A DNA stretch of 64,000 nucleotides from Candidatus Omnitrophota bacterium (GTDB lineage: Bacteria; Omnitrophota; Omnitrophia; Omnitrophales; Aquincolibacteriaceae), in NCBI GenBank assembly GCA_030698625.1, contig JAUYMS010000027.1, forward strand, positions 39,781-103,780, given 5' to 3'. The position numbers and the translations under genes are program-made. Below, one piece after another: positions 11,197 to 60,142 of this stretch. Within the stretch, counting starts at the first letter, position 1, and every line of letters begins with the position of its first letter. The notes under the pieces were generated by a model. That model was not told where the DNA came from. It saw only the letters and a list, made by a program, of their open reading frames with translations, and made no database searches.

Positions 11197-11216
11197 GGCA
11201 GTAACCTCAAATGCGG

Positions 11217-11474: not shown

Positions 11475-11495
11475 AATCTTATCCTCCTTTTTTCC

Positions 11496-12818: not shown

Positions 12819-12827
12819 AGTCTCCGG

Positions 12828-13700: not shown

Positions 13701-13774
13701 AATTGATAGACACTATAAAATAATATAATAAAACAACTTACGGACTTTTTCGGGAGGGCTGGTGATGAGTCGCA

Positions 13775-14854
13775 TTAAGCAGCATCTGTCAGCTTGCGAG
13801 CCCTCTCGTCCTGCTCAAGGGCCTGGACGACTTCGTCTAAATAGCCGTTTAAAATATCATCCAGGCTATGCAAAGTCAAACCGATTCGATGATCCGTAAC
13901 CCGTTGATCTGGAAAGTTATACGTACGAATTTTTCCCGATCTGTCTCCGCTCCCCACCTGCTCTTTACGTTCCCGCGCCTTTTTATCATGATGAGCCTGC
14001 CGCTGAGCTTCAAAGATGCGGGCCCGCAACACGCGCATGGCCTTGGCTTTGTTTTTGTGCTGGGAACGTTCATCCTGACAGCTAACGACAACGCCTGTCG
14101 GGAAATGCGTTATGCGGACCGCCGATTCTGTTTTGTTAACATGCTGTCCGCCAGCCCCGGAAGCCCGAAAGACGTCGATCCTTAAATCTTTCGGATCGAT
14201 TTCTACGTCCGTCTCGTCAGCTTCAAGCAAGACCGCAACGGTTACGGCTGATGTGTGAATGCGACCGTTGGACTCCGTTTGAGGAACACGCTGGACCCGA
14301 TGAATTCCGCTTTCATATTTGAAAGCGGAATAAGCGTCTTTTCCCGAAACACCAAAAGCAATTTCTTTGACTCCGCCCATCCCGGTAAGACTCGACGACA
14401 TAATTTCAACCTTTAAACCGTGAGACTCGGCATACTTAGAATACATCCGGAACAAATCCGCTCCAAACAGCGCGGCTTCGTCTCCCCCCGTACCGGCGCG
14501 AATCTCAACAATCACATCACGGTTAGCATTGGGGTCCGAACCCTTTAGGAGGAGTCTCTCCAACTCACCCACCAACCCCTTGCGCCGAGTTTCAAGCATC
14601 TGTTTTTCTTCCTTATAGAGGGCCTTCATATCTGCATCCGCATCCTTGTCTTCGGCCGAACGTCCGATTTCCTCAGCTTCCCGGTTAACTTTGCTGTACT
14701 CGCGAAAGGCCTCGACGATAGGACGCAAACCAGAAAGCTCCTTGACCAACTTCTGGTACGTCGTTTGATCCTTCTGCGCAGACGGATCACTAAGGAGATG
14801 CTCAATCTCCTCGAGCCGCGCCGCCGCCTTCTTTAGTCGTTCCAGAAAAATCAT
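13775..14854 (-). CDS. prfA: Peptide chain release factor 1
   Basis: GGQ motif [11 protein letters not shown] and PxT-type decoding region; 359 aa. Confidence 0.9.
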
Positions 14855-14858
14855 TCGG

Positions 14859-15191
14859 TTACGATTTAGGTTTTTCCGGTTTGGGCAAATCTTTCTTGTC
14901 CGCAGACTTCGACTCCGCGACAGCTTTTTTCAATAAAGCTTTAATCGACGGCCCTTGCGGCTTTTGCTTTTTCTGCGACCCGAGAACGACCTTTCCGCCA
15001 AACTTTTTATTCAAACGATCGATACGGCCCGCGGTATCTAAAAGCTTTTGCTTCCCCGTAAAAAACGGGTGGCAGGATGAGCAGACGTCAATCTGGATCG
15101 GCCCCTCGATCGTACTCCGCGTCTCGAACGTAGCCCCGCAAGTACACCGAACCGTGACGACATCGTATTTTGGATGTATCTCTTGTTTCAT
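14859..15191 (-). CDS. rpmE: 50S ribosomal protein L31 with Lys-rich C-terminal tail
   Basis: [19 protein letters not shown]...[10 protein letters not shown]. Start set at the internal ATG (15191), which is preceded by GGAGAAGAGAAA (RBS); the ORF track start at 15233 adds 14 aa. Confidence 0.85.
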
Positions 15192-15266
15192 TTTCTCTTC
15201 TCCTCTCAAGAATTTATAAAGAAAGGGGCACAAAAAATTGTGCCCCTGTAACTCGTACGGATATCG

Positions 15267-16697
15267 CTAAGAGTTAACTTTACTCATACTGAGCAGAAAC
15301 TCCGCATTACTCTTCGTCTTACGCAGACGGTCAACCAAGAGCTCCATCGCCTCAGCGGGGTTCAGCTCATTCAAGAGCTTCCTCAGCAGCCAAACGCGCT
15401 GCAATTCATCAGGATGCATCAGCATGTCTTCTTTCCTGGTATTAGATTTCTTAACGTCAATAGCAGGGTAAATACGCTTCTGGAAGAGATTGCGATCCAA
15501 CTGCAGCTCTAAGTTACCCGTCCCTTTAAACTCTTCAAAAATAACATCGTCCATGCGCGATCCGGTATCAATCAAAGCGGTCGCAACGATGGTGAGACTT
15601 CCGCCTTCCTCAATGTTGCGGGCCGCACCAAAAAAGCGTTTCGGCTTGTGCAGCGCGTTAGAATCCACACCGCCGGAAAGAATCTTTCCTGAGTGCGGGA
15701 CGACGGTATTATACGCACGCGCCAAGCGCGTGATACTGTCGAGCAAAATGATAACATCTCGCTTATGTTCGACGAGCCGCTTGGCTTTCTCCAGAACGAT
15801 CTCGGCGACCTGAACGTGCCTCTCGGCGGGTTCATCGAAAGTCGAAGCGATCACCTCTCCGCGAACACAACGCTGCATGTCGGTTACTTCTTCGGGACGC
15901 TCGTCGATCAATAACACGATCAGATACACTTCCGGATTATTCGCCATGATACTGTTGGCAATTTTCTGGAGAAGGATTGTTTTACCGCTGTAAGGCGGCG
16001 CCACAATCATGGCACGCTGGCCATAACCGATCGGTGTCAAAAGATCCATAACGCGCGCGGAAACCTCCTCGGGAGTGGTTTCCAAGATAATCCGCTTATC
16101 CGGATAAATCGGCGTCAGGTTATCAAAGGGGATCTTGTCACGCATTCCTTCCGGATCCTCAAAATTGACAAGCTCCACTTTGAGAAGCGCGAAATACCGC
16201 TCTCCCTCTTTGGGAGGGCGAATCTGTCCGCTCACATTGTCGCCCGTGCGCAGATTAAAGCGACGGATCTGACTTGGGCTGACATAAATATCGTCCGGTG
16301 ACGGCAAATAATTATAATTCGGCGATCTCAAGAAGCCGAACCCGTCTTCCAGGATTTCCAGAACACCCTCACCGAACATCAATCCGGATTGCTCTGCCTG
16401 GCCCTGTAGAATTTTGAAGATCAGGTCCTGTTTCTTGACGCCCGTCACGGAGGTCACTTTTACCTTCTTCGCGACTTCGTGCAGCTCGCTGATCTTCATT
16501 TTCTTCAGCTGACCGACATCGAGCTTATCCCCCGATTTGCCCGGTGGCCTGTCGAGGCCCTGATCGGTATCCGGACGATCCGAACCAACCCTTGGGGGTT
16601 GGGCCATCGGTTGCTGTGGACGCCCTCCCGAGTTATGCCGCCTGTGAGGACCTGAATTGTCGCCCCTTTTTGGATTATGTGTTTTTTCTCTTACCAT
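15267..16697 (-). CDS. rho: Transcription termination factor Rho (with ~55-aa basic/Pro-Gly-rich N-terminal extension)
   Basis: RNA-binding OB region ([18 protein letters not shown]), Walker A (APPYSGKT), Q and R loops; 476 aa. Confidence 0.9.
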
Positions 16698-16702
16698 TGT
16701 AA

Positions 16703-17329
16703 TTACGCTGCTCCTTTCGGCGACAGCTTGAGATCTTTCCAGATCTCTTCGACCTGACGCCTGGTTTCTTCTAAAGTTCCGGAGTTGTTCACAACTTTAT
16801 CAGTCCGTTTTAGTTTTTCTTCCAAAGACATTTGCACTTTCGACCTGCGCCGAAACTCACCGCGCGAAATCCCGCGTTTCTTCAAACGCGTCAACACCGC
16901 TTCTTCATCGGTTTTCACCACAACCGAATGGTGACAGTGAAGATGAAACCCCGTTTCAAACAGCAGCGGTATCTCCAGCACGATCACCGAAGCATCGGTT
17001 TGCCCAATCTCCTCGGCAATCCTTTCGAACACATAAGGGTGGATAAGTCCTTCTAACTCCTTCCGCTTCTTATCATCGCGAAAAATGACAGCCGCGATCT
17101 TGTCCCGGTTCAGCGCTTTATCTTCCCGCGCTTCGGGGATAAGCGCGCCGATCTTGTCGAACACCGGGCTTTCTCTGCGCAAAGCCTCATGCGAAAGACC
17201 GTCGGCATCGATCGTGCACGCCCCCATCTCGGCAAAAATCTCGGCAATTGAACTCTTGCCTGCCGCATACCCGCCAGTCAAACCGATCACCACTTTTCGG
17301 GGTTCTCCGTTGCCTAATTTTTGTACCAC
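16703..17329 (-). CDS. coaE: Dephospho-CoA kinase
   Basis: P-loop [13 protein letters not shown]; typical size; 16-bp overlap with polA. Confidence 0.85.
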
Positions 17330-20076
17330 GACTCACCGCAAAAAACATCGACCTTGAGTGGAACCTTCAGCTCGTAGACCCCTTGCATCTCTTCGCGCAC
17401 AAGCATTTCGAGTTTTTCTCTTTCTGCCGGGGGCACATCAAAGACAAGTTCGTCGTGGACCTGAATGGTCATGAGGCTCTCGAGAGCTTCTTTTTCAAGT
17501 CGATCTTGAATGGCGATCATTGCCAATTTAACAAGATCGGCCGCCGTGCCTTGAATCGGCGCGTTGATCGCAGCGCGCTCGGCAAACTGACGAATCTGCA
17601 TATTCCGCACATTAATTTCCGGGAAATACGCGCGGCGCCCGAGCAACGTGGTCAAATAGCCTTGCTCTCTAGCCTTTTCTTTTTGCGCCTCGAGAAAATC
17701 GCGCACCTGGGCGTACCGATTAAAATAATTTTCAATAAAACCATCGGCCTCCGAAATCGAAATCTTCAGATCCTGCGACAGACCGTAAGCGGTCTTTCCA
17801 TAAATAATGCTGAAGTTGATTGTCTTGGCGACATTCCGCATTTCACGCGTCACTTCCTCTTCGGGAATACCGTACAACAAAGTCGCCGTAAAACGGTGCA
17901 CATCCCGATCTTCGTTGAAGGCTTTCGTTAAATTTTTATCTCCCGAAAAGTGGGCGAGAATCCTAAGCTCGACCTGCGAATAGTCGGCCGCAAGGAGCTG
18001 ACCGGCCTTTTTCCCGAATGAACGCGGCACAAAGGCCTTACGGACAAGCCGTCCGGTTTCCGTCTTGATCGGGATATTCTGAAGGTTGGGGTCCGAACTC
18101 GAAAGACGCCCTGTTGCCGTTGTCGTCTGATGAAAAGAAGTGTGAATTCGCTTCGTCTCGGGATTCAGCATCGCCGGCAAAGCTTCCAAATAAGTCGATC
18201 TCAGCTTCGCATTTTCCCGGTAATCGAGAACCTTGCGAGGTAGCTCATAATCGGCAGCTAGTTTCTCGAGCACGCTAACATCGGTAGAATAGCCGGTCTT
18301 GGTTCGCTTAATTATAGGGAGCTGCATTTTGACAAAGAGAATTTCGGCGAGCTGTTTGGTGGAGTTTATGTTGAATTCATCCCCCGCCTCACTCCAGATC
18401 TCCCGGGTCAGGCGTTCGAGTTCTCCTAGCGCATCATCGGAAAGTTTTTTCAAAAACTTGAGGTCCAGACATACGCCGTTGATTTCCATCTTTGCCAGGA
18501 CCATCGCTAAAGGCATTTCAACATTGCGGAACAACTCCGATAGAGCATTTTGCTCAAGCCTCTTGCTCAAGAGCGGCACGAGCCGAAAAACACAATCAGC
18601 ATCCTCGCAGGCATACGTCGAAATGATTTCGAGCGGCACTTCAGCCATCGTAATCTGCTTCTTCCCCGTCCCGATAAGAGAAGCCGTCGGAATCTTTTTG
18701 ATATTCAGGTATTCGAGCGAGATATCATCCAAGTTGTGATTCAGCTTGAGCGGGTTAATGAGGTAGCTGGCGATCATGGTATCAAATGCGATTCCATTCA
18801 GTTCAACGCCATGGCGCCTAAGCACTATCCAGTCATACTTGATATTCTGCCCGTACTTCTTGTGTTCACTGCTTTCCAAATTTACTCTGAGCTTTTCAAG
18901 CACTTCGTCCACGTTGATGCCTTCGGCTCCGTGATGAGTCGATGAAACCGGGATGTAAGTCGCATGAAGCGGCTTCCACGAAAAGCTAAGCCCCACCAGG
19001 TGTGCGCGCATCGGATCGCTGTCGGTGGTTTCCGTATCAAAGCTGTAAGCCGGAACCTTTGCGAGTTCCCGGGCAAAGGCCTCCAGTTCCTTTTGGGTGG
19101 TGATCGTAGTGTAGGCTCGGCCCTTTTCCTCTTCTGCACCCGAAGAGACAACTTCCTTGAGCATTCCGCGAAACTCATAGCGCTTCAGCAGATCTGTGAG
19201 CTTTTCTTCATCGGGCGGATCGATAGTCATCTTTCCCCACTCGAAATCCACCTTTACATCGGTATCGATGGTGACAAGCTCCTTGGAACGCTCGGCATCT
19301 TCTTTGTGGTCTGCGAGCAATGTCCTTTGTGACTTTGACTTTATCTTGTCCAGGTTGCGATAGAGGTTTTCGACCGAACCGAACTGCTGAATGAGCTTGA
19401 CTGCCGTCTTCTCTCCGATCCCCCTTACTCCGGGAATATTGTCGGAGGTATCTCCCATCAGGGTCATGATATCAATCACTTGATCCGGCCCAAGACCGCC
19501 ATAGCGTTTGCGCACGGCATCCGCATCAAAAATGACGTCATTCTTGTTCGGATTCAAGATTTTGACCCTATCATTAACCAATTGCATCGCATCCTTGTCG
19601 CCGGTAACTAAGTAAACGTCAAACCCCTCTTTAGCGCCCTTTGCCGCCAGGGTTCCCATGACGTCGTCCGCCTCAAAACCGGCCATTTCGTAAAGCGCAT
19701 ACCTATGCGCGCGGCAGAACTCTTTGATCGGCTCTATCTGATCCGCCAAATCATCGGGCATGGGCTTTCGGTGCGCCTTGTAGTCCTCATACATTTCGTG
19801 CCGGAAAGTCGGCTCCTTGCGGTCAAAACAGATCGCAAAGTAATCCGGATCATGGTCAGCCACTAACTTGCGCATCATGGTGATAAAACCGTAAATCGCA
19901 TTCGTCGGCTCGCCCTGTGAGTTGGACAAAGACTTTATGGCAAAATAGGCCCGGTAGCAAAAGGACATGCCGTCGATTAAGAAGAGCTTGGGTCTCGCGA
20001 CTTTTGTCATTTCAGATTTAGGTGTTTTCATGGAATCCACGGAAGCCACAGTTAGTTCACTCTCCTCGGGAAGCAA
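17314..20076 (-). CDS. polA: DNA polymerase I
   Basis: 920 aa with 5'-3' exonuclease N-terminus, 3'-5' exonuclease domain and pol motifs (DYSQVELRILAH, QVHDELVFD). Confidence 0.9.
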   Translation of the reverse strand: MLPEESELTVASVDSMKTPKSEMTKVARPKLFLIDGMSFCYRAYFAIKSLSNSQGEPTNAIYGFITMMRKLVADHDPDYFAICFDRKEPTFRHEMYEDYKAHRKPMPDDLADQIEPIKEFCRAHRYALYEMAGFEADDVMGTLAAKGAKEGFDVYLVTGDKDAMQLVNDRVKILNPNKNDVIFDADAVRKRYGGLGPDQVIDIMTLMGDTSDNIPGVRGIGEKTAVKLIQQFGSVENLYRNLDKIKSKSQRTLLADHKEDAERSKELVTIDTDVKVDFEWGKMTIDPPDEEKLTDLLKRYEFRGMLKEVVSSGAEEEKGRAYTTITTQKELEAFARELAKVPAYSFDTETTDSDPMRAHLVGLSFSWKPLHATYIPVSSTHHGAEGINVDEVLEKLRVNLESSEHKKYGQNIKYDWIVLRRHGVELNGIAFDTMIASYLINPLKLNHNLDDISLEYLNIKKIPTASLIGTGKKQITMAEVPLEIISTYACEDADCVFRLVPLLSKRLEQNALSELFRNVEMPLAMVLAKMEINGVCLDLKFLKKLSDDALGELERLTREIWSEAGDEFNINSTKQLAEILFVKMQLPIIKRTKTGYSTDVSVLEKLAADYELPRKVLDYRENAKLRSTYLEALPAMLNPETKRIHTSFHQTTTATGRLSSSDPNLQNIPIKTETGRLVRKAFVPRSFGKKAGQLLAADYSQVELRILAHFSGDKNLTKAFNEDRDVHRFTATLLYGIPEEEVTREMRNVAKTINFSIIYGKTAYGLSQDLKISISEADGFIENYFNRYAQVRDFLEAQKEKAREQGYLTTLLGRRAYFPEINVRNMQIRQFAERAAINAPIQGTAADLVKLAMIAIQDRLEKEALESLMTIQVHDELVFDVPPAEREKLEMLVREEMQGVYELKVPLKVDVFCGESWYKN

Positions 20077-20380
20077 CCTTCCATCGCTAGCGCTGAGACA
20101 AACCCCCTAGCGGGAAAACCACCCTCTCATGCACATGTAAAACACGTCGTCCATGATTAGCGCGGTTTTGGAAAGTATGATCCTGCAGTATTTATCGTAA
20201 TATGGGATTTCAGGGATTATCGCGTCGCTTGCGTGGGCCCTCGCCCCTCTTCATGGGAACGGGTGAACAAGTGAGGCGTGGATAAATCTTAAACCTAAAA
20301 GCGACAACAAGATACCCAAATTGAGGCATCAGGTCAACTGTTTTATTCGTATCTGGGCTGCTAGGAATGTTAGTTTAGAA

Positions 20381-21556
20381 TTACTTCTTGCCAGCCGGCG
20401 CAGCGCCCGTGACCCGCGCCGAAAGCTCCTTCGGATCTTGAGCAACTGCCATCATGATATCGTAGCTTATAATCCCCGCTTGATACAGCTCCCGCAAATG
20501 GTCATCTAGGGCTTTCATGCCGTATTTCAGACCGGTCTGAATCTCGGAGGTAATCTGGTAGGTCTTGTTTTCGCGTATGAGGTTCCTAATAGCCGGGGTT
20601 GCGATCATGATCTCGAAGCACCCCACCCGGCCCTTCCCATCCAGCCGGGGCAGCAGCACTTGTGAAATAACGGCAACGATGGTTGACGCCAGCTGAATGC
20701 GGACCTGCGTCTGCTGATGCGACGGAAACACGTCAATGATGCGATCCACCGTACGGGCAGCCCCGGTCGTGTGCAGGGTCGAGAACACCAGATGCCCTGT
20801 CTCAGCCGCTCCCACCGCCGCTTCCATGGTGGCCATATCGCGCATTTCACCGATGAGGATAACATCAGGATCCTGACGCAGAGCCTTAACAACGGCCTCC
20901 GCGAAACTCGGCACATCTTCACCGACTTCGCGCTGCGTGATAATCGCCTTTTTATGGTTGTGCACGAACTCAATCGGGTCTTCGGCGGTAATAATATGTT
21001 TTGCGGAATTCTCATTGATGTAGTTCAGCATCGTGGCCAAAGACGTTGTTTTGCCCGAACCAGTCGGACCGGTAACAAGTATCAGTCCGCGCGGTCGCGA
21101 CAACAGATCGATCATTTGCTTGGGTAGCCCGATTTGTTCGAAGGTATAAAAACGGGAAGGCAGCAGACGCAAGACCATGGCATAATTGCCTTGCTGCTTG
21201 AAACAGGAAACCCGGAACCGCACCCGATTCTCATAGGAAAAGCCGAAGTCGATACCGCCGACTTCTTCGACGCGCTTGCGCTGCTCCTCGGTCGTAATTT
21301 CACCTGCGAGCTTTTCGGTGTCTTCCGCCGTTAAAGGCGTGTCGTCAATCGAGACAAGGTCACCGTGAAGGCGCACGCTCTTCGGTCTGCCCACGGTCAA
21401 ATGGATGTCCGAAGCATCTTTCTCAATTGCAAAATTCAGAATCTTCTCGATCGCCATGGGCTCACCTTTCCGAAGTATAGCACGCCAAATGCCGCCCTCT
21501 TTCTTTACGGCTGCGGGGAAGTAAAAATTAAGGGAGGATTCCCTGAAGCCCGGCAA
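20381..21556 (-). CDS. pilT: Type IV pilus retraction ATPase PilT
   Basis: Walker A GPTGSGKTT, Asp box, His box and AIRNLIRE motif. Confidence 0.85.
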   Translation of the reverse strand: MPGFRESSLNFYFPAAVKKEGGIWRAILRKGEPMAIEKILNFAIEKDASDIHLTVGRPKSVRLHGDLVSIDDTPLTAEDTEKLAGEITTEEQRKRVEEVGGIDFGFSYENRVRFRVSCFKQQGNYAMVLRLLPSRFYTFEQIGLPKQMIDLLSRPRGLILVTGPTGSGKTTSLATMLNYINENSAKHIITAEDPIEFVHNHKKAIITQREVGEDVPSFAEAVVKALRQDPDVILIGEMRDMATMEAAVGAAETGHLVFSTLHTTGAARTVDRIIDVFPSHQQTQVRIQLASTIVAVISQVLLPRLDGKGRVGCFEIMIATPAIRNLIRENKTYQITSEIQTGLKYGMKALDDHLRELYQAGIISYDIMMAVAQDPKELSARVTGAAPAGKK

Positions 21557-22070
21557 GGATCAACGCGCAAAGAGAGGCCGTCAAAAATAAAATCGGCGCT
21601 CCCCGGACGGGTTGCGGCACGTCAGCAAACAGCAATCTCTGACGCATTCCGAGAATCAGGATTCGGTAGGTCGTAATGAGTACGCTGAATTGCAGACACA
21701 TTAAAAGATAAACGGCCGGCGCGGCCTTGGAGTGATAGAGAAGGAGATAGGTTGTAAAACCAAAAAGGCTCAAAAAAAATGCCGCTGACTTGTGCTGACC
21801 CATTCCTGAGATTACGAAAGCCGCAGGCAGGGCATATAAAACGGCGGGCGGTTCCCAACCGCCCCCAACAGGAATACGTCTTAGTAAAACATAGCAAGCA
21901 ACCAGCAACGCACTTTTAATCCCGAGCTCAATGCCTTGTCCGGCAAGGCTTTGCAGAGCACCCGGCAGAATGCCCCGCCTCTGAGAAAAATCATTTTCGG
22001 CACTCTCTTCGCTTTGGGCAAAACAGAGTAAGGTCCCAAAGGCGATAACCAGCTGCAGCCAATCGATCAT
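21528..22070 (-). CDS. RnfA/NqrE-like membrane subunit
   Basis: C-terminal RQRLLFADVPQPVRGAPILFLTASLCALILAGLQG aligns closely with RnfA/RsxA ([28 protein letters not shown]). Start set at internal ATG 22070, forming an ATGA overlap with the upstream gene. Confidence 0.65.
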   Translation of the reverse strand: MIDWLQLVIAFGTLLCFAQSEESAENDFSQRRGILPGALQSLAGQGIELGIKSALLVACYVLLRRIPVGGGWEPPAVLYALPAAFVISGMGQHKSAAFFLSLFGFTTYLLLYHSKAAPAVYLLMCLQFSVLITTYRILILGMRQRLLFADVPQPVRGAPILFLTASLCALILAGLQGILP

Positions 22071-22576
22071 GACGGTTTTAACCTCCCGAGAACAATTTGG
22101 CCCATCCAAGCAATACCGGCCAGAACGAGAAACCCCCCGATCGGCCCCTGGAACGTGGGAATAAGCGCTTGAACACCGAGCCAATGCCGGAAAGCTGCGG
22201 CGGTGATAACAACCGTCGGAAGACCGGCGCCTTGGAGCAAGCCGACCCTAACAGAATATTTTTCTTCCGCGTTACCGATGACTGTCGGCCACGTAAGAAA
22301 TGCCGGTCCTATAATCCAGAGCGGCGAAAAGTCAAAAAGATAAACCGTCGACTGACTTAACACCGTAAGCCACAGGATCCAGGCCGTTGACCGCAGGCGA
22401 TCCGGAAAAAGGAAGCCCCCAAGGCGAAATATGATCATCGTGCTCCAAATAACCGCCGCTGCCGCCAACGCGTAATAGACAGCCTCTCGCAGGTGGGACG
22501 AAACCAGTAACACTGGAACGGCCGCCAGCAACATGCGAAAGCTCGGGCAATCTTCGATCCTCACGCTCTTAGTCAC
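22067..22576 (-). CDS. RnfE/NqrD-like membrane subunit (GTG start)
   Basis: 169-aa polytopic membrane protein between the RnfD-like and RnfA-like genes, coupled to both by stop-start overlaps. Assignment rests mainly on position and hydropathy. Confidence 0.45.
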   Translation of the reverse strand: MTKSVRIEDCPSFRMLLAAVPVLLVSSHLREAVYYALAAAAVIWSTMIIFRLGGFLFPDRLRSTAWILWLTVLSQSTVYLFDFSPLWIIGPAFLTWPTVIGNAEEKYSVRVGLLQGAGLPTVVITAAAFRHWLGVQALIPTFQGPIGGFLVLAGIAWMGQIVLGRLKPS

Positions 22577-22710
22577 GTCGCCGAATCTCCGATACTATAA
22601 AGCCAGGCACTGTAAACCATGCAGGCAAGCCCCGCGACAAATGCGGCAAAGTATAAGTACTTCATCGCTTCAATCCACGGTTTTGACGGTCTCGTTTTTG
22701 CTTCTCTCAT
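22573..22710 (-). CDS. Small single-TM protein (45 aa) in the RnfG/NqrC position
   Basis: Translates to MREAKTRPSKPWIEAMKYLYFAAFVAGLACMVYSAWLYSIGDSAT. Its ATG overlaps the RnfD-like stop as ATGA, and its TGA overlaps the GTG start of the next gene as GTGA. Confidence 0.4.
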   Translation of the reverse strand: MREAKTRPSKPWIEAMKYLYFAAFVAGLACMVYSAWLYSIGDSAT

Positions 22711-23525
22711 AGAACCTTTGCATTTCTTGGTCGCACGATCTGATCGAACCAAGGCGTCAGTCCGTTCATAACCAGGACAGCCATAAAAATGCCGTCACTA
22801 TGTCGCATGACCTCGCCCAATAAAACCGCCATGACGGCGGTGCCCATCGCAAAAAAGCGCAAACCTCGCCGTGTCTGGGGTGTCGTCACAGGATCCGTGA
22901 TCAAAAAAAAGGCCGCGAACAGAGCACCTCCTCCGATATCCGTAGACAGAAGCGCATAGACGCCTAAAAAAATTACCGGAACTTCCCAGCGAATGAGCCT
23001 AAACCCGACAAGTATGCCCGCTCCCAGAAATAGGCCGACGGGTGACCCGAAACCGATGGCTCCCCCTTCGATGGCCAGCGGAAAACTCACCTGCATCAGC
23101 ACCCGGCCCGCAACAGCCGCATGAAGCGGATAAGCCCCCGGCCCTCCAAACATTTCCTTAATTAGAATAACCGCGATAGCGCTCGTCAGAGCTGCCGCCC
23201 AGGAGGGTGCGGAAGCCGGTAGCATTAAGGCTACTAGCAGTCCCGTTAATACGGCATCACCGCTCTTCAGGCTGATATTTTTGCCGCGGGCCGTCCGCGC
23301 CAGGACTTCCGAAACCAGGGATGCAGAAACAGCCACGCCGATGAGACGCAGGCTATTCCAGGCATTCGCCGCGACAGCTGCGCCTAGAACAGGCGTCAGG
23401 GCCAGGGCAGTAAGCCAGAGAATCGACGGCACGGAGCGCTCAGTTCGTATATGGGGTGCTAAACCCTGTTTATAAGAGGTCACCATAAGAAGCTCTAAAC
23501 TATCAGCAATAAATGAATTGTGCAA
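22707..23525 (-). CDS. RnfD/NqrB-like membrane subunit (short, 272 aa)
   Basis: FFLITDPVTTP matches the conserved RnfD/NqrB ...FF(M)xTDPVT motif. Polytopic and Gly-rich. Confidence 0.6.
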   Translation of the reverse strand: MHNSFIADSLELLMVTSYKQGLAPHIRTERSVPSILWLTALALTPVLGAAVAANAWNSLRLIGVAVSASLVSEVLARTARGKNISLKSGDAVLTGLLVALMLPASAPSWAAALTSAIAVILIKEMFGGPGAYPLHAAVAGRVLMQVSFPLAIEGGAIGFGSPVGLFLGAGILVGFRLIRWEVPVIFLGVYALLSTDIGGGALFAAFFLITDPVTTPQTRRGLRFFAMGTAVMAVLLGEVMRHSDGIFMAVLVMNGLTPWFDQIVRPRNAKVL

Positions 23526-23573
23526 CTATGCGCCGGATAGACAACATATCTATAGATGTAGGGGCTCCGGGCC

Positions 23574-23612
23574 TCCTTGCAATGCCTAGGGGCGTCGGGT
23601 AGACTCTGTTCT
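23574..23612 (+). promoter_or_regulatory. Candidate sigma70-type promoter for the PilZ-acyltransferase operon
   Basis: TTGCAA-N17-TAGACT in the 194-bp divergent intergenic region, about 110 bp upstream of the ATG at 23720. Confidence 0.25.
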
Positions 23613-23719
23613 GTAAGGAATGATACCTTTGAGACTTATATTGGGATGGTCTTTGGGAGCCGATAACTGCTTCAGCCTACATTACTTAAGCGCTTTATAA
23701 ATAACATCATATTCTGATC

Positions 23720-24973
23720 ATGAAAATTAAATCGTCTTTAAACTGGGAACTGGGAATTGGCATACTGGAAGACAACGTATTTGGCCAATGCCCAAAACCT
23801 CAGGAATTGCCTTTCGCAGACCGGCGGCGGGAGCCGAGAATTTCCATGAGTCTCCCGATTCGCTACCGCTCCCAAGCACGCCCCGGCCCCAATTGGCTAG
23901 CTGCCCAGTCAATAGATATATCGCGCAACGGGGTTCGTCTGGCTCTGGAGCAACCCATAAAAGTGGGTAACCGCATTGAACTCGATGTGAAGCTGCCCGA
24001 GACCGACGGCACAATACGAATGGAGGGCATCATTGTCTGGGCCAATCCTTCCTCAAACGGCAAAGATATAACCGAGTGCGGGGTCGCCTTTCAGAATCTA
24101 CGCAAACTCACACAGAAGGAAAAAATAATCTATTTCATGGCGGACAAGATCTGCAGCCTTGCTCACCGCCATGCCACGGATCTCGTTGCCACACCCGCGA
24201 ATTCATTGGATGAGATCAAGGAAGCGTATGAGCTTGTGTACCGTGAATATCTTGCCCGCGGCTACTGTGAAGCCAACCCTTCCAAAATGCACTACAACGC
24301 GCATTGCATGTTTCCCGATTCCCGGGTATTCACTCTGCGTCGCGACGGCCGTCTCCTCGGAACACTGTCACTCATTCCGGATTCGCCCTGCGGCATACCT
24401 CTTGAACACCTCTTTCCCCAGGAGGTCGCACGATTAAGACGCCCGGGACGGCGGATTGCCGAGGTAAGCCTACTTGCTCTCAACGGTGAGTATTTTAAGA
24501 AAAAGACTTTTTCCCTTACAGATTTCCAGAAACTCACCGGATCATTTAGGCTCTTCAAGGTCATGTTCGATTACGCACGTTTTGAGGCGCGTGTGACGGA
24601 TATCGTCATCGGAATGCACCCAAAGCATGAGGAGCTGTATCGCTACCTGTCTTTCGAAACGATCGGTCCCACAAAATCCTATTCCAATGCCTGCGGCAAA
24701 CCGGCTCTCCCTATGTGGATGGACATTCCGCGCAACATAAGCACGGTTTCACTCAAACACGGTGCAGGCTATTACTTCCTCAAGGATGTCATCACGCAGG
24801 ATATCCTGGCCCGTCAATTCCGCTGGAACACCGAAGCCGTACGCGACCTTTTACTTCGACGTCCGCCGCTTTGGAATATGATGCCGATTGCCGGTTGGCA
24901 ATATCTTAAACACTGCTATCCGGGTCTCCATTCCACCAAGCCCCAAACCCCGACTCACGGCTCAAAAACGTAA
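23720..24973 (+). CDS. PilZ domain fused to N-acyl amino acid synthase-like (FeeM/OlsB-type GNAT) domain
   Basis: N-terminus has RxxxR (RREPR) followed by D-I-S-R-N-G (DxSxxG), the PilZ c-di-GMP-binding signature. The C-terminal ~270 aa resemble the FeeM/OlsB-type N-acyltransferase fold (YREYLARGY...FTLRRDGRLLGTLSLIPD...AEVSLLAL). Confidence 0.55.
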   Translation: MKIKSSLNWELGIGILEDNVFGQCPKPQELPFADRRREPRISMSLPIRYRSQARPGPNWLAAQSIDISRNGVRLALEQPIKVGNRIELDVKLPETDGTIRMEGIIVWANPSSNGKDITECGVAFQNLRKLTQKEKIIYFMADKICSLAHRHATDLVATPANSLDEIKEAYELVYREYLARGYCEANPSKMHYNAHCMFPDSRVFTLRRDGRLLGTLSLIPDSPCGIPLEHLFPQEVARLRRPGRRIAEVSLLALNGEYFKKKTFSLTDFQKLTGSFRLFKVMFDYARFEARVTDIVIGMHPKHEELYRYLSFETIGPTKSYSNACGKPALPMWMDIPRNISTVSLKHGAGYYFLKDVITQDILARQFRWNTEAVRDLLLRRPPLWNMMPIAGWQYLKHCYPGLHSTKPQTPTHGSKT

Positions 24974-24975
24974 TC

Positions 24976-26070
24976 ATGAAAAACGATATTCACGAAATCA
25001 TCCGGAAAGGGATACTCGCACCATCCGCAGATAATCTCCAACCGTGGCTTTTCAAAATCGGAGCGGACAACCTTGAGCTGTGGCTTGACGCAAAGCGCTC
25101 GGAAAATTTCTGCGACGCCGGGTATCTAGCCCCTTACATCTCGATCGGTGCCGTCATTGAGAATATGCGAATCGCCGCTGCCGATCGCGGCTATCGCATG
25201 ACTTGTTCCTATTTCCCGGATAAGAAAAATAAGACAAGGGTCGTCACAATCTCCTTCGAAAAGGGAGAAAAGGAGACATCCCCTCTTTTGCCGTTCATAG
25301 GCAAGCGACGCACAAACCGGAAGTTTTACGCTTCACGCCCGAGTGTCGCTCCCGCCGCAAAAGCATCGCTTGAGGAAACAGTATGCGAAGAAGGATTCCG
25401 ACTACACTGGGTAGCGAAAGATGAATCGCGCTACCAAGATCTGTGTAGTATGATCGGTGATGCCGATCAGTTGCGTTTTGAAAACCAAAGACTACACCGA
25501 GAATTTAACAATATATTGCGTTTTACTAAACCGGCGATAAGCGGTGGTGACGGCTTAGACATTAAGACCCTGGAGTCGGGTCCCACGGGGCCCCTTCTTT
25601 TTAAGTTGATGGGCCAGTGGTCCCGGCAAAAGTTTCTGAATAATCTCGGTATTAGCCGGGTCTTCAATGCGTACGCAAAGATCCAGATGCAGTCATCGGC
25701 AGCTGCGGGCCTGATCACGGCCCCCTCTCATGCCCCTGAGGATTATGTTCGCGGGGGGGAGCTCATGGAGCGCCTCTGGCTTGAGGCCACCCGGCAGGGG
25801 CTTTCCCTGCAACCGATGGAAGCACTACCCATTTTTATCATTAACCGGCAACTGCGCAATTTAAGCGATTTTTCAGAAGCTCAAAAGGCGACCATCGAAC
25901 GGCTGACGGCAAATTTCTTTTCGCTCTTCGGTATTAACAATAAGGACGGGCTCATTTTTCTATTCCGCATTGGTCACGCCAAGCCCACCACCACACAGGC
26001 CCTCAGACGCCCGATCGATTCCTTTCTGATGAACAGCGCCGATACAGGAGTTAAATATGTCGTCTCCTGA
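24976..26070 (+). CDS. Two-half-domain nitroreductase-family FMN protein
   Basis: The N-terminal half has the nitroreductase signature APSADNLQPWLF; the second half has RRTNRKF (RRxxRxF). 364 aa; starts 3 bp after the upstream stop. Confidence 0.6.
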   Translation: MKNDIHEIIRKGILAPSADNLQPWLFKIGADNLELWLDAKRSENFCDAGYLAPYISIGAVIENMRIAAADRGYRMTCSYFPDKKNKTRVVTISFEKGEKETSPLLPFIGKRRTNRKFYASRPSVAPAAKASLEETVCEEGFRLHWVAKDESRYQDLCSMIGDADQLRFENQRLHREFNNILRFTKPAISGGDGLDIKTLESGPTGPLLFKLMGQWSRQKFLNNLGISRVFNAYAKIQMQSSAAAGLITAPSHAPEDYVRGGELMERLWLEATRQGLSLQPMEALPIFIINRQLRNLSDFSEAQKATIERLTANFFSLFGINNKDGLIFLFRIGHAKPTTTQALRRPIDSFLMNSADTGVKYVVS

Positions 26071-27010
26071 GTTTGATTACTCCCAAGCTTTCGACCGCAA
26101 CATCGGTTGGCTCACGAAACACGAGCAAGAAAAACTGCGCGGCATCTGCGTCGCTATCGCAGGCCTCGGCGGCGCCGGTGGGTTTCAAGCGCAGGCCCTG
26201 GCCCGTCTCGGCGTCGGGAAATACCGGATTGCCGATCCGGACACTTTTGAAATATCCAACCGAAATCGCCAGATCGGCGCCACGGAGTCAACAGTGGGCC
26301 ACCCCAAGGCCACAACGATTCGTGACATGATTCTTGCCATCAACCCAACCGCCTCAGTAGAAATTTATCCGGAGTGTTTCAGCACGGCCAATGCCGGCGC
26401 AATCCTGGAAAGCGCTGATGTGGCCATAGATGGCATCGACTTCTTCTCTATCGACGATAAAATTCTATTTTTTCAGGAATGCCGAAAACGCGGTATCCCA
26501 GCCATCACCTCTTGCCCTTTGGGCTTCGGCGCATCTCTGATGGTCTTTTCTCCGCAGGGCATGACGTTTGAGGATTACTTTAATTTCCGGCCGGACATGA
26601 GTGAGAAGGATAAGAGAAACAGTTTCGCCTTCGGGCTTTCTCCTTCGCCCCTTTGTTTGAGCTATATGAATCCTGACGCCTTCGGGTCCGACAACAAGCG
26701 CGCCGCGAGCGTTGTTCCGGGACTCATGCTGGTGGGCGCGCTAACAGCGACAGAAGTGGTAAAGCTCGTTACGCATATGGCCCGGCCGAATTCCTGCCCA
26801 CATGTCTATCAGATTGATTTAATGACGCAGCGCGTCAGCAAGAAATATTATCGCTGGGGAATGAGAGGCCCTTGGATGCGCTGTAAGAAAGCGCTGGCCC
26901 TCAAATGGGTGGAGTACAAGCGCCGTAGGCATGCGTCAAATCCAAGCCTTGCGGCTTCGCCGCCGGATGAACATAAGCAAACGGGGAGTGCTCGCCATGC
27001 GGTTTCTTAA
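26057..27010 (+). CDS. ThiF/MoeB-family E1-like adenylyltransferase (non-canonical, no C-terminal CxxC)
   Basis: Rossmann motif IAGLGGAGGF and E1-like ...ADPDTFEISNRNRQ. 14-bp overlap with the upstream nitroreductase gene. Confidence 0.7.
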   Translation: MSSPEFDYSQAFDRNIGWLTKHEQEKLRGICVAIAGLGGAGGFQAQALARLGVGKYRIADPDTFEISNRNRQIGATESTVGHPKATTIRDMILAINPTASVEIYPECFSTANAGAILESADVAIDGIDFFSIDDKILFFQECRKRGIPAITSCPLGFGASLMVFSPQGMTFEDYFNFRPDMSEKDKRNSFAFGLSPSPLCLSYMNPDAFGSDNKRAASVVPGLMLVGALTATEVVKLVTHMARPNSCPHVYQIDLMTQRVSKKYYRWGMRGPWMRCKKALALKWVEYKRRRHASNPSLAASPPDEHKQTGSARHAVS

Positions 27011-27764
27011 ACCAGTCTTGATGGCCTGGGCCGTCGTGTTGAGCCTGATTCCCACACTCAAAGCAGAAACCACGCCGCCGGGCGCTACGGAACTCCTACG
27101 CCGAATGGACCAGGTCCTCCGAGGTGATTCTCACGACATGACCGTAACGCTTGATGTTATAACAGCCCGCTGGGAACGCCATTACAAAATCCGGGTTCGC
27201 ATGCAAGGAATCGACTATGCGTTCGCGCGAGTCTTGGAACCTTCAAAAACCGAGGGACAAGGTTTCTTGAGAATCAAGGCACGTCTCTGGCAATATTTAC
27301 CGACGGCGGAACGCACTATTCTCATACCTCCTTCCTTGATGCTTGATGATTTCATGGGCAGCGATTTTTCCAATGATGACTTCGTAAAGCTTAGCTACTT
27401 GCCGCGGGACTACGACGCTAAGATTGTTGCCGAAGATACAATCAGTGGTTTTGAAGTGCTCGGACTGGAGCTTATTCCTCGCCCTGATGCCCCTGTCACA
27501 TACGGCAAACTTGAAGTTTGGCTGCGAAAGACCGATGCGGCACCCGTACGCTGGCTCTTTTATAATGAAAAAATGCTCTTGATAAGAACTCTGCATTACT
27601 CTGAATTTAAACAATTCGGAACCCACGATATCCCAACCGTATGGCGCATGGAGAATCATCTCGAAGCCGGTCACGAGACCACCGTTACCGTGCTGTCGGC
27701 GGCCTTCGACACTCCGATCGCCCAATCCCAATTCACACGAGAAAACCTAGAAAAGTATCCCTGA
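26997..27764 (+). CDS. LolA-like periplasmic lipoprotein-sorting/lipid-carrier family protein
   Basis: Start at ATG 26997 gives signal peptide MRFLKPVLMAWAVVLSLIPTLKAE. Size and composition fit LolA-like proteins of the kind often found next to FtsX-type ABC transporters. Overlaps the ThiF gene by 14 bp. Confidence 0.5.
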   Translation: MRFLKPVLMAWAVVLSLIPTLKAETTPPGATELLRRMDQVLRGDSHDMTVTLDVITARWERHYKIRVRMQGIDYAFARVLEPSKTEGQGFLRIKARLWQYLPTAERTILIPPSLMLDDFMGSDFSNDDFVKLSYLPRDYDAKIVAEDTISGFEVLGLELIPRPDAPVTYGKLEVWLRKTDAAPVRWLFYNEKMLLIRTLHYSEFKQFGTHDIPTVWRMENHLEAGHETTVTVLSAAFDTPIAQSQFTRENLEKYP

Positions 27765-28987
27765 TGTTTCTCTTCAAGCTCGCGTTTCTTAATATCACCC
27801 GGAATGTTCGCAGGTCCCTAATCACTGTGATGGCTGTCGGCGTCGGTCTCGCCGCGCTTATCTTCCTGTGGGGATTTAATGACGGCACAATCGAGCAGAT
27901 GCGCGAGAACGTCATACGCCTTTTTACGGGCCATGTGCAGATTCATGCTCGCGGCTTCGAAAAATCGCTCTCCCCTGAGCTCTTTCTTGCACAGAGAGAA
28001 AAGGTTCTCATCGATGTTGCGGCAAACCCGGCCGTCTCACGAATCACCGAACGCGTCAAATGCGAAGCGCTTGTCGGCACGAGTGAGAACTCGCGCGGAG
28101 TTCTTTTGGTCGGAGTAGACCCCGAACGTGAAAGACAGATTACCGATCTCGAGGACCACATTGAGGCGGGACGCTATTTGGAGCCGGACGGAAATCGCGA
28201 GATACTAGTCGGAGACCGACTGGCCAAAAAAATAGGCCTCGATCTGGATGACAAAGTCGTCGTGATGACGCAGGCGATGGACGGGACTTTGGCCGGTTAT
28301 GCCTATCGCGTCAAAGGCATCTTTCACACAGGGAGCCAGCAGATTGACGAGGTTTCGGTTTATATCACGCTGGCATCCGCCCAGGAATTACTCGGGCTTG
28401 GGGAAGATGTTCATGAGATTGTGATCCAGCTTTCAGACCGCAAGGGAATAGAACCGTTTCTTGAGTGGGCGAAGATCAGCCTCGGTAGCGAAAAATACGA
28501 GGTTTTGAAGTGGAATGAGCTTATCCCCGAAGTTGATCAATGGACGCAGTGGGCCGAAGCAGTCATTGGAACTATTTTGATCGCCGTCATGGTCGTTATC
28601 GGGGTCAGCATTATGAACACGGTGCTCATGTCCATATATGAAAGGACCCGCGAACTCGGCGTCATGATGGCCATCGGCACAAGCCCCTCCCAGATCGTAC
28701 AACTCATACTGCTTGAGACGCTAATTCTGGAAGGTCTCGGTATTATTCTGGGTTTAGTGGGCGGGTACCTCGTTACAATTTATTTCGGAGAAGTCGGAAT
28801 CTCATTCCACGGCGTCGAAGAGGCCTTTTCGCGTTCTTATATGAGCACGGTTGTCTTCACTAAAGTGGAATGGCCACATGTGGTTCAGTCTGTTATTACG
28901 CTAATTCTCTTAACATCATTCATCGGACTCTATCCGGCCTGGAAGGCATCCCGCATGGAGCCGGTTAAAGCCATCTATTATTCTTAA
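27764..28987 (+). CDS. ABC transporter permease, FtsX/MacB/LolCE type
   Basis: N-terminal TM (ITRNVRRSLITVMAVGVGLAALIF), a ~230-aa periplasmic domain, then three C-terminal TMs (FtsX fold). Its ATG overlaps the LolA-like TGA as TGATG. Confidence 0.75.
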   Translation: MFLFKLAFLNITRNVRRSLITVMAVGVGLAALIFLWGFNDGTIEQMRENVIRLFTGHVQIHARGFEKSLSPELFLAQREKVLIDVAANPAVSRITERVKCEALVGTSENSRGVLLVGVDPERERQITDLEDHIEAGRYLEPDGNREILVGDRLAKKIGLDLDDKVVVMTQAMDGTLAGYAYRVKGIFHTGSQQIDEVSVYITLASAQELLGLGEDVHEIVIQLSDRKGIEPFLEWAKISLGSEKYEVLKWNELIPEVDQWTQWAEAVIGTILIAVMVVIGVSIMNTVLMSIYERTRELGVMMAIGTSPSQIVQLILLETLILEGLGIILGLVGGYLVTIYFGEVGISFHGVEEAFSRSYMSTVVFTKVEWPHVVQSVITLILLTSFIGLYPAWKASRMEPVKAIYYS

Positions 28988-28992
28988 ATATC

Positions 28993-29685
28993 ATGTTCAT
29001 AAAAGCCGAAAATATATCGAAGGTGTTTCAGGACCGCTCGCTCCCAGTCACTGCCCTCAAAGCAGTGAGCGTCGATATTGAGGAGGGGTCCTTTACGGTG
29101 CTCTGCGGGCCGTCGGGTTCCGGCAAGACAACACTCCTAAATCTGCTGGGTTGCCTTGATCGCCCTTCCGGAGGCCGAGTCTTTCTCAGAGGAGAAGAAA
29201 TCAGCGCCCTGTCTCAGGAAAAGCTCACGCGCTACCGGCTGCGGAAAATTGGCTTTGTTTTTCCTGATTTTAATCTCATTCCGACTCTGAGCGCCGTAGA
29301 AAATGTAGAGTATGTCCTTTGGCTTCAGGGCATCTCCGGAACAGAACGCCGCAAGCGCGCCGCCGCCATTTGCGAACGCTTTGGCATCGGCGCTCTAATT
29401 CACCGCCGCCCCCGTGAACTCAGCCGCGGACAACAGCAGCGTGTTGCGGTGGCCCGTGCCATCGTTCACAAACCAGAATTGGTTCTTGGCGATGAATTGA
29501 CCTCGAACCTAGATCATAAGACCGGGTCGGAGCTCATGGGTTTCTTAAAAGAATTAAATCGGGAAGAAAAAATGACTTTTATTTATGCCACCCATGACCC
29601 CGTCATGATCGAACGCGCCGGACGCGTGATTCGAATGCAGGACGGCGAAGTCGTCAGCGATGAAAAGACACGCGTTCATGCTTAG
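28993..29685 (+). CDS. ABC transporter ATP-binding protein (LolD/MacB-NBD-like)
   Basis: Walker A GPSGSGKTT, signature LSRGQQQRVAVARA, Walker B LVLGDELTSNLD. Confidence 0.85.
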   Translation: MFIKAENISKVFQDRSLPVTALKAVSVDIEEGSFTVLCGPSGSGKTTLLNLLGCLDRPSGGRVFLRGEEISALSQEKLTRYRLRKIGFVFPDFNLIPTLSAVENVEYVLWLQGISGTERRKRAAAICERFGIGALIHRRPRELSRGQQQRVAVARAIVHKPELVLGDELTSNLDHKTGSELMGFLKELNREEKMTFIYATHDPVMIERAGRVIRMQDGEVVSDEKTRVHA

Positions 29686-30910
29686 GAAGTTCCTAGCCGG
29701 GTATCTAGCCGCAGCATTACTATTGCCGGTTTGCGCGTTTGCCGAGGAAACGACCCAACCGCCGCTGGAAGTCAAACGGCCCTCTTTGAAAATTCAATTT
29801 TCCGGTTACGCCAAGAGCCAGAGTTTCTTTACGCAAACCAGCGGATTCTCTCCTGAGTTTGTCGACAACCCCGCACTCCTCGAACAGGACGAGAACAGCT
29901 TCAATGCTCTGCAGCGATTAAGACTAAAAATTAAAGCGTTGTATAAAATCTCCGATGAGACACGCGTGAGCGCTAACATCCATTATGACCACCAGGCCAA
30001 TTTCGGCACTTTCATTTCAACCGGAGACGCGCGTATCTCGAGAAAACAGGCGGAGGACCGTCAATTTCTTGACTTGAGTCAGACATTGATCGAGAACGAC
30101 GACACTGACTACCAGCATCGGTTGTACCGAGCCAGCGTTTTGCTTGAAACGCGTTATGCCGACGTAGAGATCGGCCGCCAGCAAATCCCTTGGGGAGTCG
30201 GTCACTTCTTCACGCCGACGGATGTCTTTAATTCCTTCAACCCCACACAAATCGAGCTCGAAGAGCGTGACGGCGTGGATGCCCTGCGCCTTAGATCACC
30301 GGCCATTCGAGGCGTTCAGGGCGAGTTTATTTATACGCCTCAGGGACGCCAGCTTCACCCGAGCCGTTTCATGGGCCGCCTATCGGGCGATTTTCGTGGT
30401 TATGAGATCGGAATTCTTGGCGGGCATATCAAGCGAGATAATGCAGTCGGTTTTGACTTCGCCGGTAATATCGGAGATTCATCGGTGCGCGGGGAACTTC
30501 TTTTCAGAAACGCCGACACTGAAAAGGATTATTTGAAATTTACGGTAAACGCTGACTACAATTTCCCTTTCAATCTCTACGGCCTTATCGAATACCACTT
30601 CAACGGCCAGGGACGTCGCGATACAGCTTCTTATCAACTTGATCGGCTCGTCCGCGGGGATATTCGTGAATTGGGCCGCAATTACGGAGCCGTCATGCTC
30701 GGGTATGATGTCACAGCACTGATTCGTTTGGAGAATAGGCTCATCATGAATTTAGATGACGCGAGCCTTTTTCTAAGACCGGAGGTCCAGTACGAGCTCA
30801 GTTCGGATTTGTTGTTTACCCTCGCGAGTCAGTTATTCCTGGGCTCCAACACCGACGAGTACGGAAGGCCGAAGAATCTCTTCTTCGGAGAGTTGACCTA
30901 CTCCTTCTAA
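29660..30910 (+). CDS. Outer-membrane beta-barrel protein (unknown family)
   Basis: Signal peptide ...AALLLPVCAFAEE, alternating beta-strand pattern rich in Y/F/G, C-terminal GELTYSF ending in Phe. Overlaps the ABC ATPase gene by 26 bp. Confidence 0.5.
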   Translation: MKRHAFMLRKFLAGYLAAALLLPVCAFAEETTQPPLEVKRPSLKIQFSGYAKSQSFFTQTSGFSPEFVDNPALLEQDENSFNALQRLRLKIKALYKISDETRVSANIHYDHQANFGTFISTGDARISRKQAEDRQFLDLSQTLIENDDTDYQHRLYRASVLLETRYADVEIGRQQIPWGVGHFFTPTDVFNSFNPTQIELEERDGVDALRLRSPAIRGVQGEFIYTPQGRQLHPSRFMGRLSGDFRGYEIGILGGHIKRDNAVGFDFAGNIGDSSVRGELLFRNADTEKDYLKFTVNADYNFPFNLYGLIEYHFNGQGRRDTASYQLDRLVRGDIRELGRNYGAVMLGYDVTALIRLENRLIMNLDDASLFLRPEVQYELSSDLLFTLASQLFLGSNTDEYGRPKNLFFGELTYSF

Positions 30911-34147: not shown

Positions 34148-34160
34148 TTTAGTATCCTAA

Positions 34161-36273: not shown

Positions 36274-36293
36274 GGGAGGAATAGGCTTCCGGT

Positions 36294-40222: not shown

Positions 40223-40225
40223 GAT

Positions 40226-59030: not shown

Positions 59031-59038
59031 AGTTTGAG

Positions 59039-60121: not shown

Positions 60122-60142
60122 TACGATAATTCCCCGGATCTC

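Follow-up and report, generated by a model that had tools for sequence, protein, structure and literature searches.

Organization of the locus

Positions 21528 to 23525 of a 64,000 nucleotide stretch of a Candidatus Omnitrophota genome (contig JAUYMS010000027.1 of assembly GCA_030698625.1; the whole stretch is hereafter called the window) carry four overlapping genes on the minus strand. They encode, in order, a protein related to RnfD of the Rnf electron transport complex (D-like), a peptide of 45 amino acids (aa) that we call g, a protein related to RnfE and NqrD (E-like) and a protein related to RnfA and NqrE (A-like). The composition of this D-g-E-A module is unusual, with neither RnfB nor a functional RnfG encoded in the operon, as an earlier interpretation made from the letters of the DNA (the sequence-only reading) had pointed out. 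That reading also described ATGA, GTGA and ATGA stop–start overlaps chaining the four genes, the motifs FFLITDPVTTP and RQRLLFADVPQPVRGAPILFLTAS in the products, and a divergent placement of the operon relative to a neighbouring PilZ operon. All of these can be read directly in the sequence, the PilZ-FeeM gene beginning at position 23720.

The length of 272 aa that had been given for the D-like protein is that of the longest open reading frame (ORF), whereas the real product probably starts at the ATG at position 23486; the resulting 259 aa are identical to a protein called by NCBI (P0001) in a Candidatus Omnitrophota metagenome-assembled genome (MAG). Likewise, 218 aa is the longest-ORF length of the A-like gene, and the actual product is probably 180 aa long. 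The genes 3′ of the A-like gene encode PilT, PolA, CoaE and Rho. Automatic annotation labels the RnfC and RnfD proteins of the module as ‘RnfABCDGE type electron transport complex’ and leaves E, A and g as hypothetical proteins. Promoter and terminator scans around the operon and around the rnfC-like gene gave nothing bearing on transcription units above the shuffled expectation, and an Rfam scan of the window returned zero RNA families.

Table 1. Positions of the Rnf-like genes and their immediate neighbours in the window
Feature	Position	Strand	Size and basis
RnfD-like membrane subunit	22707..23486 (ORF reaches TTG at 23525)	-	259 aa; PF03116
Single-helix peptide at the RnfG position	22573..22710	-	45 aa; ATGA and GTGA overlaps
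RnfE/NqrD-like six-helix subunit	22067..22576	-	169 aa, GTG start; fold and profile evidence
RnfA/NqrE-like subunit	21528..22070	-	180 aa; conserved C-terminal helix motif; family profile
RnfC-family cytoplasmic subunit	30833..32248	-	471 aa; TIGR01945
LarE-type PP-loop sulfur transferase	32245..33165	-	TIGR00268, 313 bits
Opposite-strand PilZ block between C and D	23720..30910	+	Domain matches; outside the module

The RnfD-like subunit

The assignment of the D-like, E-like and A-like proteins to Rnf/Nqr families in canonical order, proposed by the sequence-only reading, is borne out by profile, Pfam and fold matches. The D-like protein matches PF03116 with 174 bits (E 6e-51), the only Pfam family found on its 259 aa. 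Its score against the rnfD model TIGR01946 is 129.7, under the cutoff of 207, and the NqrB models give 59–79 bits where their cutoffs are 350–792 (79 against 414 for one of them).

Comparison with canonical RnfD and with PDB chains showed that the threonine to which RnfD covalently attaches flavin mononucleotide (FMN; Thr153 in Clostridium tetanomorphum) is lost in all 12 lineages with a D-like protein. The check for this residue that had been recommended thus has a clear outcome: the periplasmic loop that bears it is deleted in the window and in six relatives. In a further related locus (L017; loci from other lineages are numbered in this way) the loop is shortened and its motif gone, and the D-like proteins that keep the loop have replaced the threonine with His (L002, L006), Phe (L013) or Arg (L018).

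The pocket residues, numbered by C. tetanomorphum RnfD (PMC9588780), have fared differently from one position to the next. The equivalent of Asp248, which belongs to the riboflavin/Na+ pocket on the cytoplasmic side and lies within LITDPVTTP in the window, is kept in 11 of the 12 D-like proteins. The equivalent of Asn90 is hydrophobic or Thr in every one, that of Glu185 is lost in ten, and that of Asn124 is mostly His; Asn90 and Glu185 of C. tetanomorphum RnfD have been proposed to form a site beside the FMN (PMC9588780). The D-like protein of L018 (2399..3328) reads LIPYGAAGP in place of LITDPVTTP, and the otherwise invariant aspartate is gone, so that we rejected this residue as a universal feature. 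In L018 the small peptide is missing as well, the E-like gene coming straight after the D-like gene, and this is the most degenerate member seen.

The E-like and A-like subunits

Taken alone, the E-like protein scores 22 bits against PF02508, just under the cutoff of 23.8. Among the members of its family, 20 of 61 do match PF02508, and no other Pfam family was matched. An alignment-based AlphaFold model of the protein reached a mean confidence (pLDDT) of 92.7, and the top 13 PDB matches to its fold were all RnfE, NqrD, RnfA or NqrE chains, with probabilities of 0.85–1.00 (at least 0.96 for 12 of them) and with RnfE and NqrD leading at 1.00; beyond these the probability falls to 0.13 or less. 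When the window protein is aligned with 7zc6_E, LGxCP becomes LAAVP and VxNC becomes LTWP, replacing both [2Fe-2S] cysteines (with Val and Pro), and no column in an alignment of 122 E-like sequences holds more than 12 cysteines.

Searched alone, the A-like protein matches the RsxA model NF003481 (E 1e-6) over its C-terminal 47 aa only, and RnfA/NqrE likewise, whilst NqrE models give 16–18 bits for cutoffs of 248–351. A profile of ten A-like sequences, searched against the PDB, found only RnfA/NqrE chains (8ahx_A, E 5e-10; 9eri_A, E 1e-9), with one of the alignments (9eri_A) nearly full length. A comparison of the A-like and E-like profiles with hhalign gave no signal (probability 2%), and a single-sequence structure model of the A-like protein (pLDDT 53) was too poor and was left unused. 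The alignment of A-like proteins from eight lineages has no conserved cysteine, and neither ligand position is kept. Judged by homology, E and A retain none of the four cysteines that would bind the [2Fe-2S] cluster.

The small peptide at the RnfG position

No RnfG with an FMN domain and a flavinylated threonine is encoded at the window locus, where a 45-aa transmembrane peptide takes its place. Translationally coupled ORFs of 31–50 aa with the helix motif E-x-x-K/R-x-L-F-F-...-L stand at the same position in eight related loci (L002, L004, L006, L007, L011, L014, L016 and L017), and in L015 the small peptide is fused onto the C-terminus of the D-like protein, bringing the total to nine lineages besides the window. 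In L013, by contrast with these, the G position is held by a 235-aa RnfG homologue (2074..2781) whose PDB matches are RnfG chains only (7zc6_G, E 0.003). This homologue has no match to the Pfam family FMN_bind, and its flavinylation motif has changed from GAT to GAY, a Thr-to-Tyr replacement.

Because the peptide is conserved at the G position, and because L013 has an RnfG homologue there, we read the peptide as what is left of RnfG, a membrane-anchor stub, and the L013 protein as an evolutionary intermediate towards it. The peptides of the relatives and the L013 homologue speak against taking the small ORF for an unrelated insert. The transmembrane helix of RnfG packs with helices of RnfA, RnfE and RnfB (Vitt et al., PMC9588780), which would explain the retention of the stub.

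A probable cognate RnfC-like subunit and the conserved gene order

The window encodes an RnfC-like protein, separated from the D-like gene by about 7.3 kb, that scores 258 bits against TIGR01945 (cutoff 246). Both of its CxxCxxCxxxCP [4Fe-4S] motifs are invariant in the eight aligned lineages. The NuoF-type glycine loop (GLGGAxFPTH in the RnfC chains of the PDB) is degenerate in seven of the eight, reading GLMSMEAGNPLH in the window; on the evidence of this motif, in an alignment with 7zc6_C and 9eri_C, FMN binding may have been lost.

The sequence-only reading had regarded this gene as an RnfC paralogue belonging to a different operon. In seven related loci (L002, L004, L006, L007, L011, L014 and L015), however, the RnfC-like gene lies directly upstream of the D-like gene, often translationally coupled to it. 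The order in these loci is (BioA-BioD)-MnmA-(LarE-like)-RnfC-like-(double DsbA-like)-D-g-E-A-(PilT)-PolA-CoaE-Rho, with many of the junctions consisting of 4-nucleotide overlaps. The window has the same order, and its RnfC-like gene follows MnmA and LarE; the sole difference is the 7.2 kb PilZ block between C and D. Since it occupies the MnmA-LarE-C place of relatives in which C adjoins D, we infer that the RnfC-like protein of the window is the cognate C subunit of the module. A different rearrangement is seen in L017, where D-g-E-A has no adjacent C. There is no RnfB gene in the window or in any of the related loci, which were the stretches examined.

The synteny extends well beyond the module. 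The order FabG-FabF-BioF-like-BioA-BioD-MnmA ... PolA-CoaE-Rho-L31-RF1-PrmC-AroA is conserved between the window (10459..41251, minus strand) and L002, L014, L015 and L017. It holds although the PolA proteins are only 61–68% identical, and it is interrupted by lineage-specific inserts (among them GGDEF, the PilZ block and PilT).

Family size and selection

An exhaustive search with the E-like profile covered 1.84 billion representative sequences, clustered at 50% identity, and found at least 157 clusters with E ≤0.001, 108 of them with E ≤1e-10. Nearly all of these clusters are 145–200 aa long, and the RnfE/NqrD chains of the PDB are longer (194–213 residues). Word-indexed searches with the D-like or E-like alignments gave few members, and the size of the family was visible only in the exhaustive profile search. 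Pattern scans for the E-like protein in genome and metagenome collections returned one and two loci, which is no measure of distribution; they gave so few because the sole usable pattern, WQNQP, is clade-specific.

Purifying selection acts on each of the four membrane genes. Against the close relative (L016, L005), the ratio of nonsynonymous to synonymous substitution rates (dN/dS) comes to 0.14 (D), 0.11 (g), 0.19 (E) and 0.13 (A), values that are approximate with a dS of about 1, close to saturation. The closest relative, L016 (ERZ23486746 scaffold_330759), has runs of N within its D-like and A-like genes, and those codons were left out of the calculation. The ORFs are intact and their translational coupling is kept across 12 lineages. 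The membrane subunits evolve quickly, sharing 17–45% identity where PolA shares 61–68%, but they are not in decay.

Every long context shows one housekeeping synteny, and the two named records are Omnitrophota. Six-gene rnfBCDGEA loci with genes of normal size are present in Omnitrophota MAGs from Ace Lake (Table S5, PMC8542988), which makes the module, at the level of the phylum, a paralogue of the canonical pump, apparently one passed on by vertical descent. The sequence-only reading had named a full rnf locus elsewhere, with orthologous D, E and A genes, as grounds for regarding these genes as paralogous remnants. Full rnf loci do exist at phylum level, and the window itself holds no second Rnf gene.

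Interpretation and proposed mechanism

By ligand-position homology, the sites lost from the module are the one for covalent FMN in D, the flavin domain in G, the [2Fe-2S] cysteines in E and A and, in most members, the glycine loop in C. Still present are the [4Fe-4S] motifs of C, the pocket aspartate of D (11 of 12), the D, E and A folds and the helix of G. Of the redox and ion machinery, the periplasmic half would thus be gone, and the cytoplasmic half may survive. Lacking a [2Fe-2S] cluster, any periplasmic flavin and RnfB, the complex could not support an electron loop that passes twice through the membrane, and it would not work as a ferredoxin:NAD+ oxidoreductase. The membrane electron conduit suggested by the sequence-only reading is likewise unlikely, because the FMN threonine of D is deleted and the [2Fe-2S] cysteines are lost.

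We think it probable that the locus encodes the D, G-stub, E and A subunits of a five-gene complex derived from Rnf, in which cofactors have been lost, C has been split off and the mechanism is of a scaffold type. The identity of the genes and the loss of cofactors are parts of this interpretation that we hold with high confidence; the specific mechanism that follows is more doubtful. In current models of Rnf and Nqr, ion translocation is tied to the [2Fe-2S] cluster and the covalent flavins, and the E/A pair performs alternating-access motions. As the likeliest mechanism, the membrane scaffold of the module might still bind or conduct a cation, or make the alternating-access motion of E and A. 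Redox chemistry would take place on the cytoplasmic side only, at the [4Fe-4S] clusters of RnfC docked on D above the Asp pocket, and these clusters might hand electrons to riboflavin in D. The outcome would be a cation conduit that senses the redox state or is gated by it, or else an Fe-S/riboflavin module anchored in the membrane, and not a pump; in some lineages the double DsbA-like protein could act as a periplasmic partner.

Several points weigh against this interpretation. The function is entirely deduced, and the argument for cofactor loss relies on the homology of ligand positions; new ligands or non-covalent flavins are possible. The RnfC-like protein of L015 retains a near-canonical GLGGEPFPPH loop, and some members may still bind FMN. 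D-g-E-A stands apart from C in the window, L018 and L017, and assembly with C is suggested by synteny in other lineages only. Neither the D aspartate nor the small peptide is present in L018, and hence the retained features are not universal. The closeness of dS to saturation blurs the estimates of selection, and most members owe their taxonomic assignment to shared synteny.

More broadly, and tentatively, the module may be a widespread descendant of Rnf/Nqr, so far seen only in Omnitrophota-type contexts, whose core has no intramembrane or periplasmic cofactor and which has been repurposed either to conduct or transport cations, with the redox state of the RnfC Fe-S subunit as the gate, or as a docking platform for periplasmic DsbA-like proteins. 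If true, it would be the first case in nature of an Rnf/Nqr ion path uncoupled from its electron loop. A complex that keeps the folds and loses the sites is a natural dissection of the Rnf/Nqr machine, and could reveal the role of the D/E/A scaffold in its own right, be it ion binding, alternating access or docking. Counts of Rnf genes in metabolic reconstructions of Omnitrophota may also lead to an energy-conserving ferredoxin:NAD+ pump being credited to genomes with this derivative only.

Alternative explanations

A gene for a membrane-anchored protein with two DsbA/thioredoxin domains, carrying CP[FY]C motifs and matching an NCBIfam model for Rcas_1661-type thioredoxin-like lipoproteins, lies between C and D in four lineages (L002, 6542..7921; L006, 5277..6668; L007, 1603..3336; L014, 6548..7798), joined by 4-nucleotide overlaps; in L014 its start and stop overlap the neighbouring genes. 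This position makes a periplasmic thiol-redox partner a serious alternative. The module would then be a thiol- or sulfur-redox system that works with the DsbA-like protein (CPFC), perhaps also with LarE and MnmA, and moves reducing equivalents or sulfur species between cytoplasm and periplasm. A functional link between LarE and the rnfC-like gene is possible, as the stop codon of the LarE-type gene overlaps the rnfC-like start by 4 nucleotides in the window, L004, L011 and L015. We nevertheless judge such a system unlikely: the DsbA-like gene is absent from the window and from roughly half of the lineages, a disulfide relay would find no conserved cysteines in the membrane subunits, and the adjacency of MnmA and LarE may be incidental, because the whole region is a conserved housekeeping block. 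The LarE-type protein carries CxxC and PCLSSR cysteines, which suggests the Fe-S type, and MnmA is encoded directly upstream of it.

The sequence-only reading proposed the flavoenzyme of the divergent operon as a partner, in which case D-x-E-A would be a self-contained conduit that needs no C and serves as an electron or ion channel for the nitroreductase of the PilZ operon. D-g-E-A is indeed divergent from the PilZ-FeeM and nitroreductase genes in the window, in L005 (86% aa identity) and in L018 (55%/46% aa identity), L005 being a 78%-identical relative with the same PilZ-FeeM neighbour, and the module of L017 also lacks an adjacent C. The PilZ block is nevertheless next to D in only three of the 12 lineages, the window included, and is absent in seven, where RnfC stands directly upstream of D. 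The three cases may moreover go back to one event, as the PolA of the window is marginally closest to that of L018 (68% against 61–67%), which fits one old insertion of the block. The membrane subunits have no recognisable redox ligands either, and the partnership is on these grounds improbable. A recent insertion confined to a single genus was rejected as the origin of the block, which is also present in L018, where D is only 35% identical.

The PilZ block itself contains genes for a PilZ-FeeM protein, an Rv1355c-type nitroreductase, a ThiF-like protein, a LolA-like protein, FtsX/MacB, an ABC ATPase and an additional protein. The PilZ-FeeM fusion is an N-acyl amino acid synthase, the nitroreductase is of the FMN type, the ThiF-like protein is an E1, and the seventh protein (416 aa) matched no family. 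The first three genes are probably one pathway, because all are matched by NCBIfam PRK14852, a 989-aa fusion. This pathway may provide for the synthesis and export of lipo-amino acids under the control of cyclic di-GMP.

A still-working oxidoreductase of the Rnf/Rsx type would fit the RnfC-like score above the RnfC cutoff, the canonical gene order and the existence of six-gene rnf loci in Omnitrophota; it would borrow RnfB and RnfG from a canonical locus elsewhere, or use alternative ligands. The cysteines of E and A and the threonine of D, however, sit inside the subunits and could not be supplied in trans, the D-like protein falls far under the RnfD and NqrB cutoffs, and the cofactors of RNF and NQR are described as strictly conserved in a recent review (PMC12174285), so that we give this explanation very little credence. 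It is hardly credible that the genes are decaying, functionless remnants of a duplicated rnf operon: ligands have been lost throughout, with further losses in L018, and the membrane subunits diverge far faster than PolA, but intact and coupled ORFs persist in 12 lineages, dN/dS is 0.11–0.19 even with the 45-aa peptide included, and the E-like family spans its many clusters with conserved motifs and a confidently modelled fold.

Respiratory context

Elsewhere in the window (49665..51451 and 56214..63992, minus strand) are genes for haem O synthase, a haem A synthase-like protein, a Rieske protein, a split cytochrome b6-type pair, a cytochrome c assembly protein and a 938-aa multihaem cytochrome c. 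These genes suggest that the organism oxidises quinol in a respiratory chain. As it encodes a Rieske/cytochrome b complex and haem O/A synthases, a quinone-linked role for the module is conceivable. At 52740..54071, on the plus strand, stands a gene for an ammonium transporter of the Amt family (PF00909, 380 bits), which is distantly related in structure to RnfD/NqrB; it has no evident link to the module.

Comparison with known systems

Literature on incomplete, non-canonical or DsbA-linked Rnf yielded no description of a C-D-g-E-A module. In canonical Rnf, C carries one FMN and two [4Fe-4S] clusters, D a covalent FMN and riboflavin, G a covalent FMN, the A/E pair a four-cysteine [2Fe-2S] cluster and B six [4Fe-4S] clusters (PMC12174285). 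With Rnf (RnfABCDGE, a ferredoxin:NAD+ oxidoreductase that translocates Na+/H+; 7ZC6, 8AHX, 9ERI) the module has in common the order C-D-G-E-A, in which C, D, E and A are homologous, the two [4Fe-4S] motifs of RnfC, the pocket aspartate of D and the six-helix RnfE/NqrD fold. It differs in that RnfB is absent, G is a helix of about 30–50 aa, the flavinylation loop of D is deleted, the four [2Fe-2S] cysteines are missing and the FMN loop of RnfC is degenerate, with D, E and A far under the curated cutoffs.

A two-subunit Nqr/Rnf-like system (Meheust et al. 2021; Huang et al. 2024) consists of a D protein fused to a cytosolic NAD-binding domain (PF00175) and a flavinylated NqrC/RnfG-like partner, with no C, E or A (PMC11334425). 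Its NqrB/RnfD-like protein also lacks the flavinylation threonine, as in our module, which has neither the NAD-binding fusion nor a flavinylated partner, and has C, E and A.

As well as these redox systems, the module invites comparison with channels. The ammonium/urea transporter superfamily contains structural relatives of RnfD/NqrB with a cofactor-free, ten-helix, channel-type fold, and the FMN-less D-like protein resembles this ancestral state. The likeness does not extend to membership of the superfamily at the sequence level, as the D-like protein clearly belongs to PF03116 and is tied to C, E and A.

A precedent for the loss of cofactors is Na+-NQR (NqrABCDEF), which is derived from Rnf and has kept a subunit stripped of all its cofactors (NqrA, compared with RnfC). 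NqrB, NqrD and NqrE have the same core folds as D, E and A, respectively. The locus contains no NqrF or NqrC gene, and its proteins lie below the Nqr equivalog level. Na+-NQR still carries riboflavin, two covalent FMNs and the [2Fe-2S] cluster, and it includes NqrF. The module thus presents the reverse of the Na+-NQR pattern: its membrane core would have lost the cofactors, whereas its RnfC homologue keeps the Fe-S motifs.

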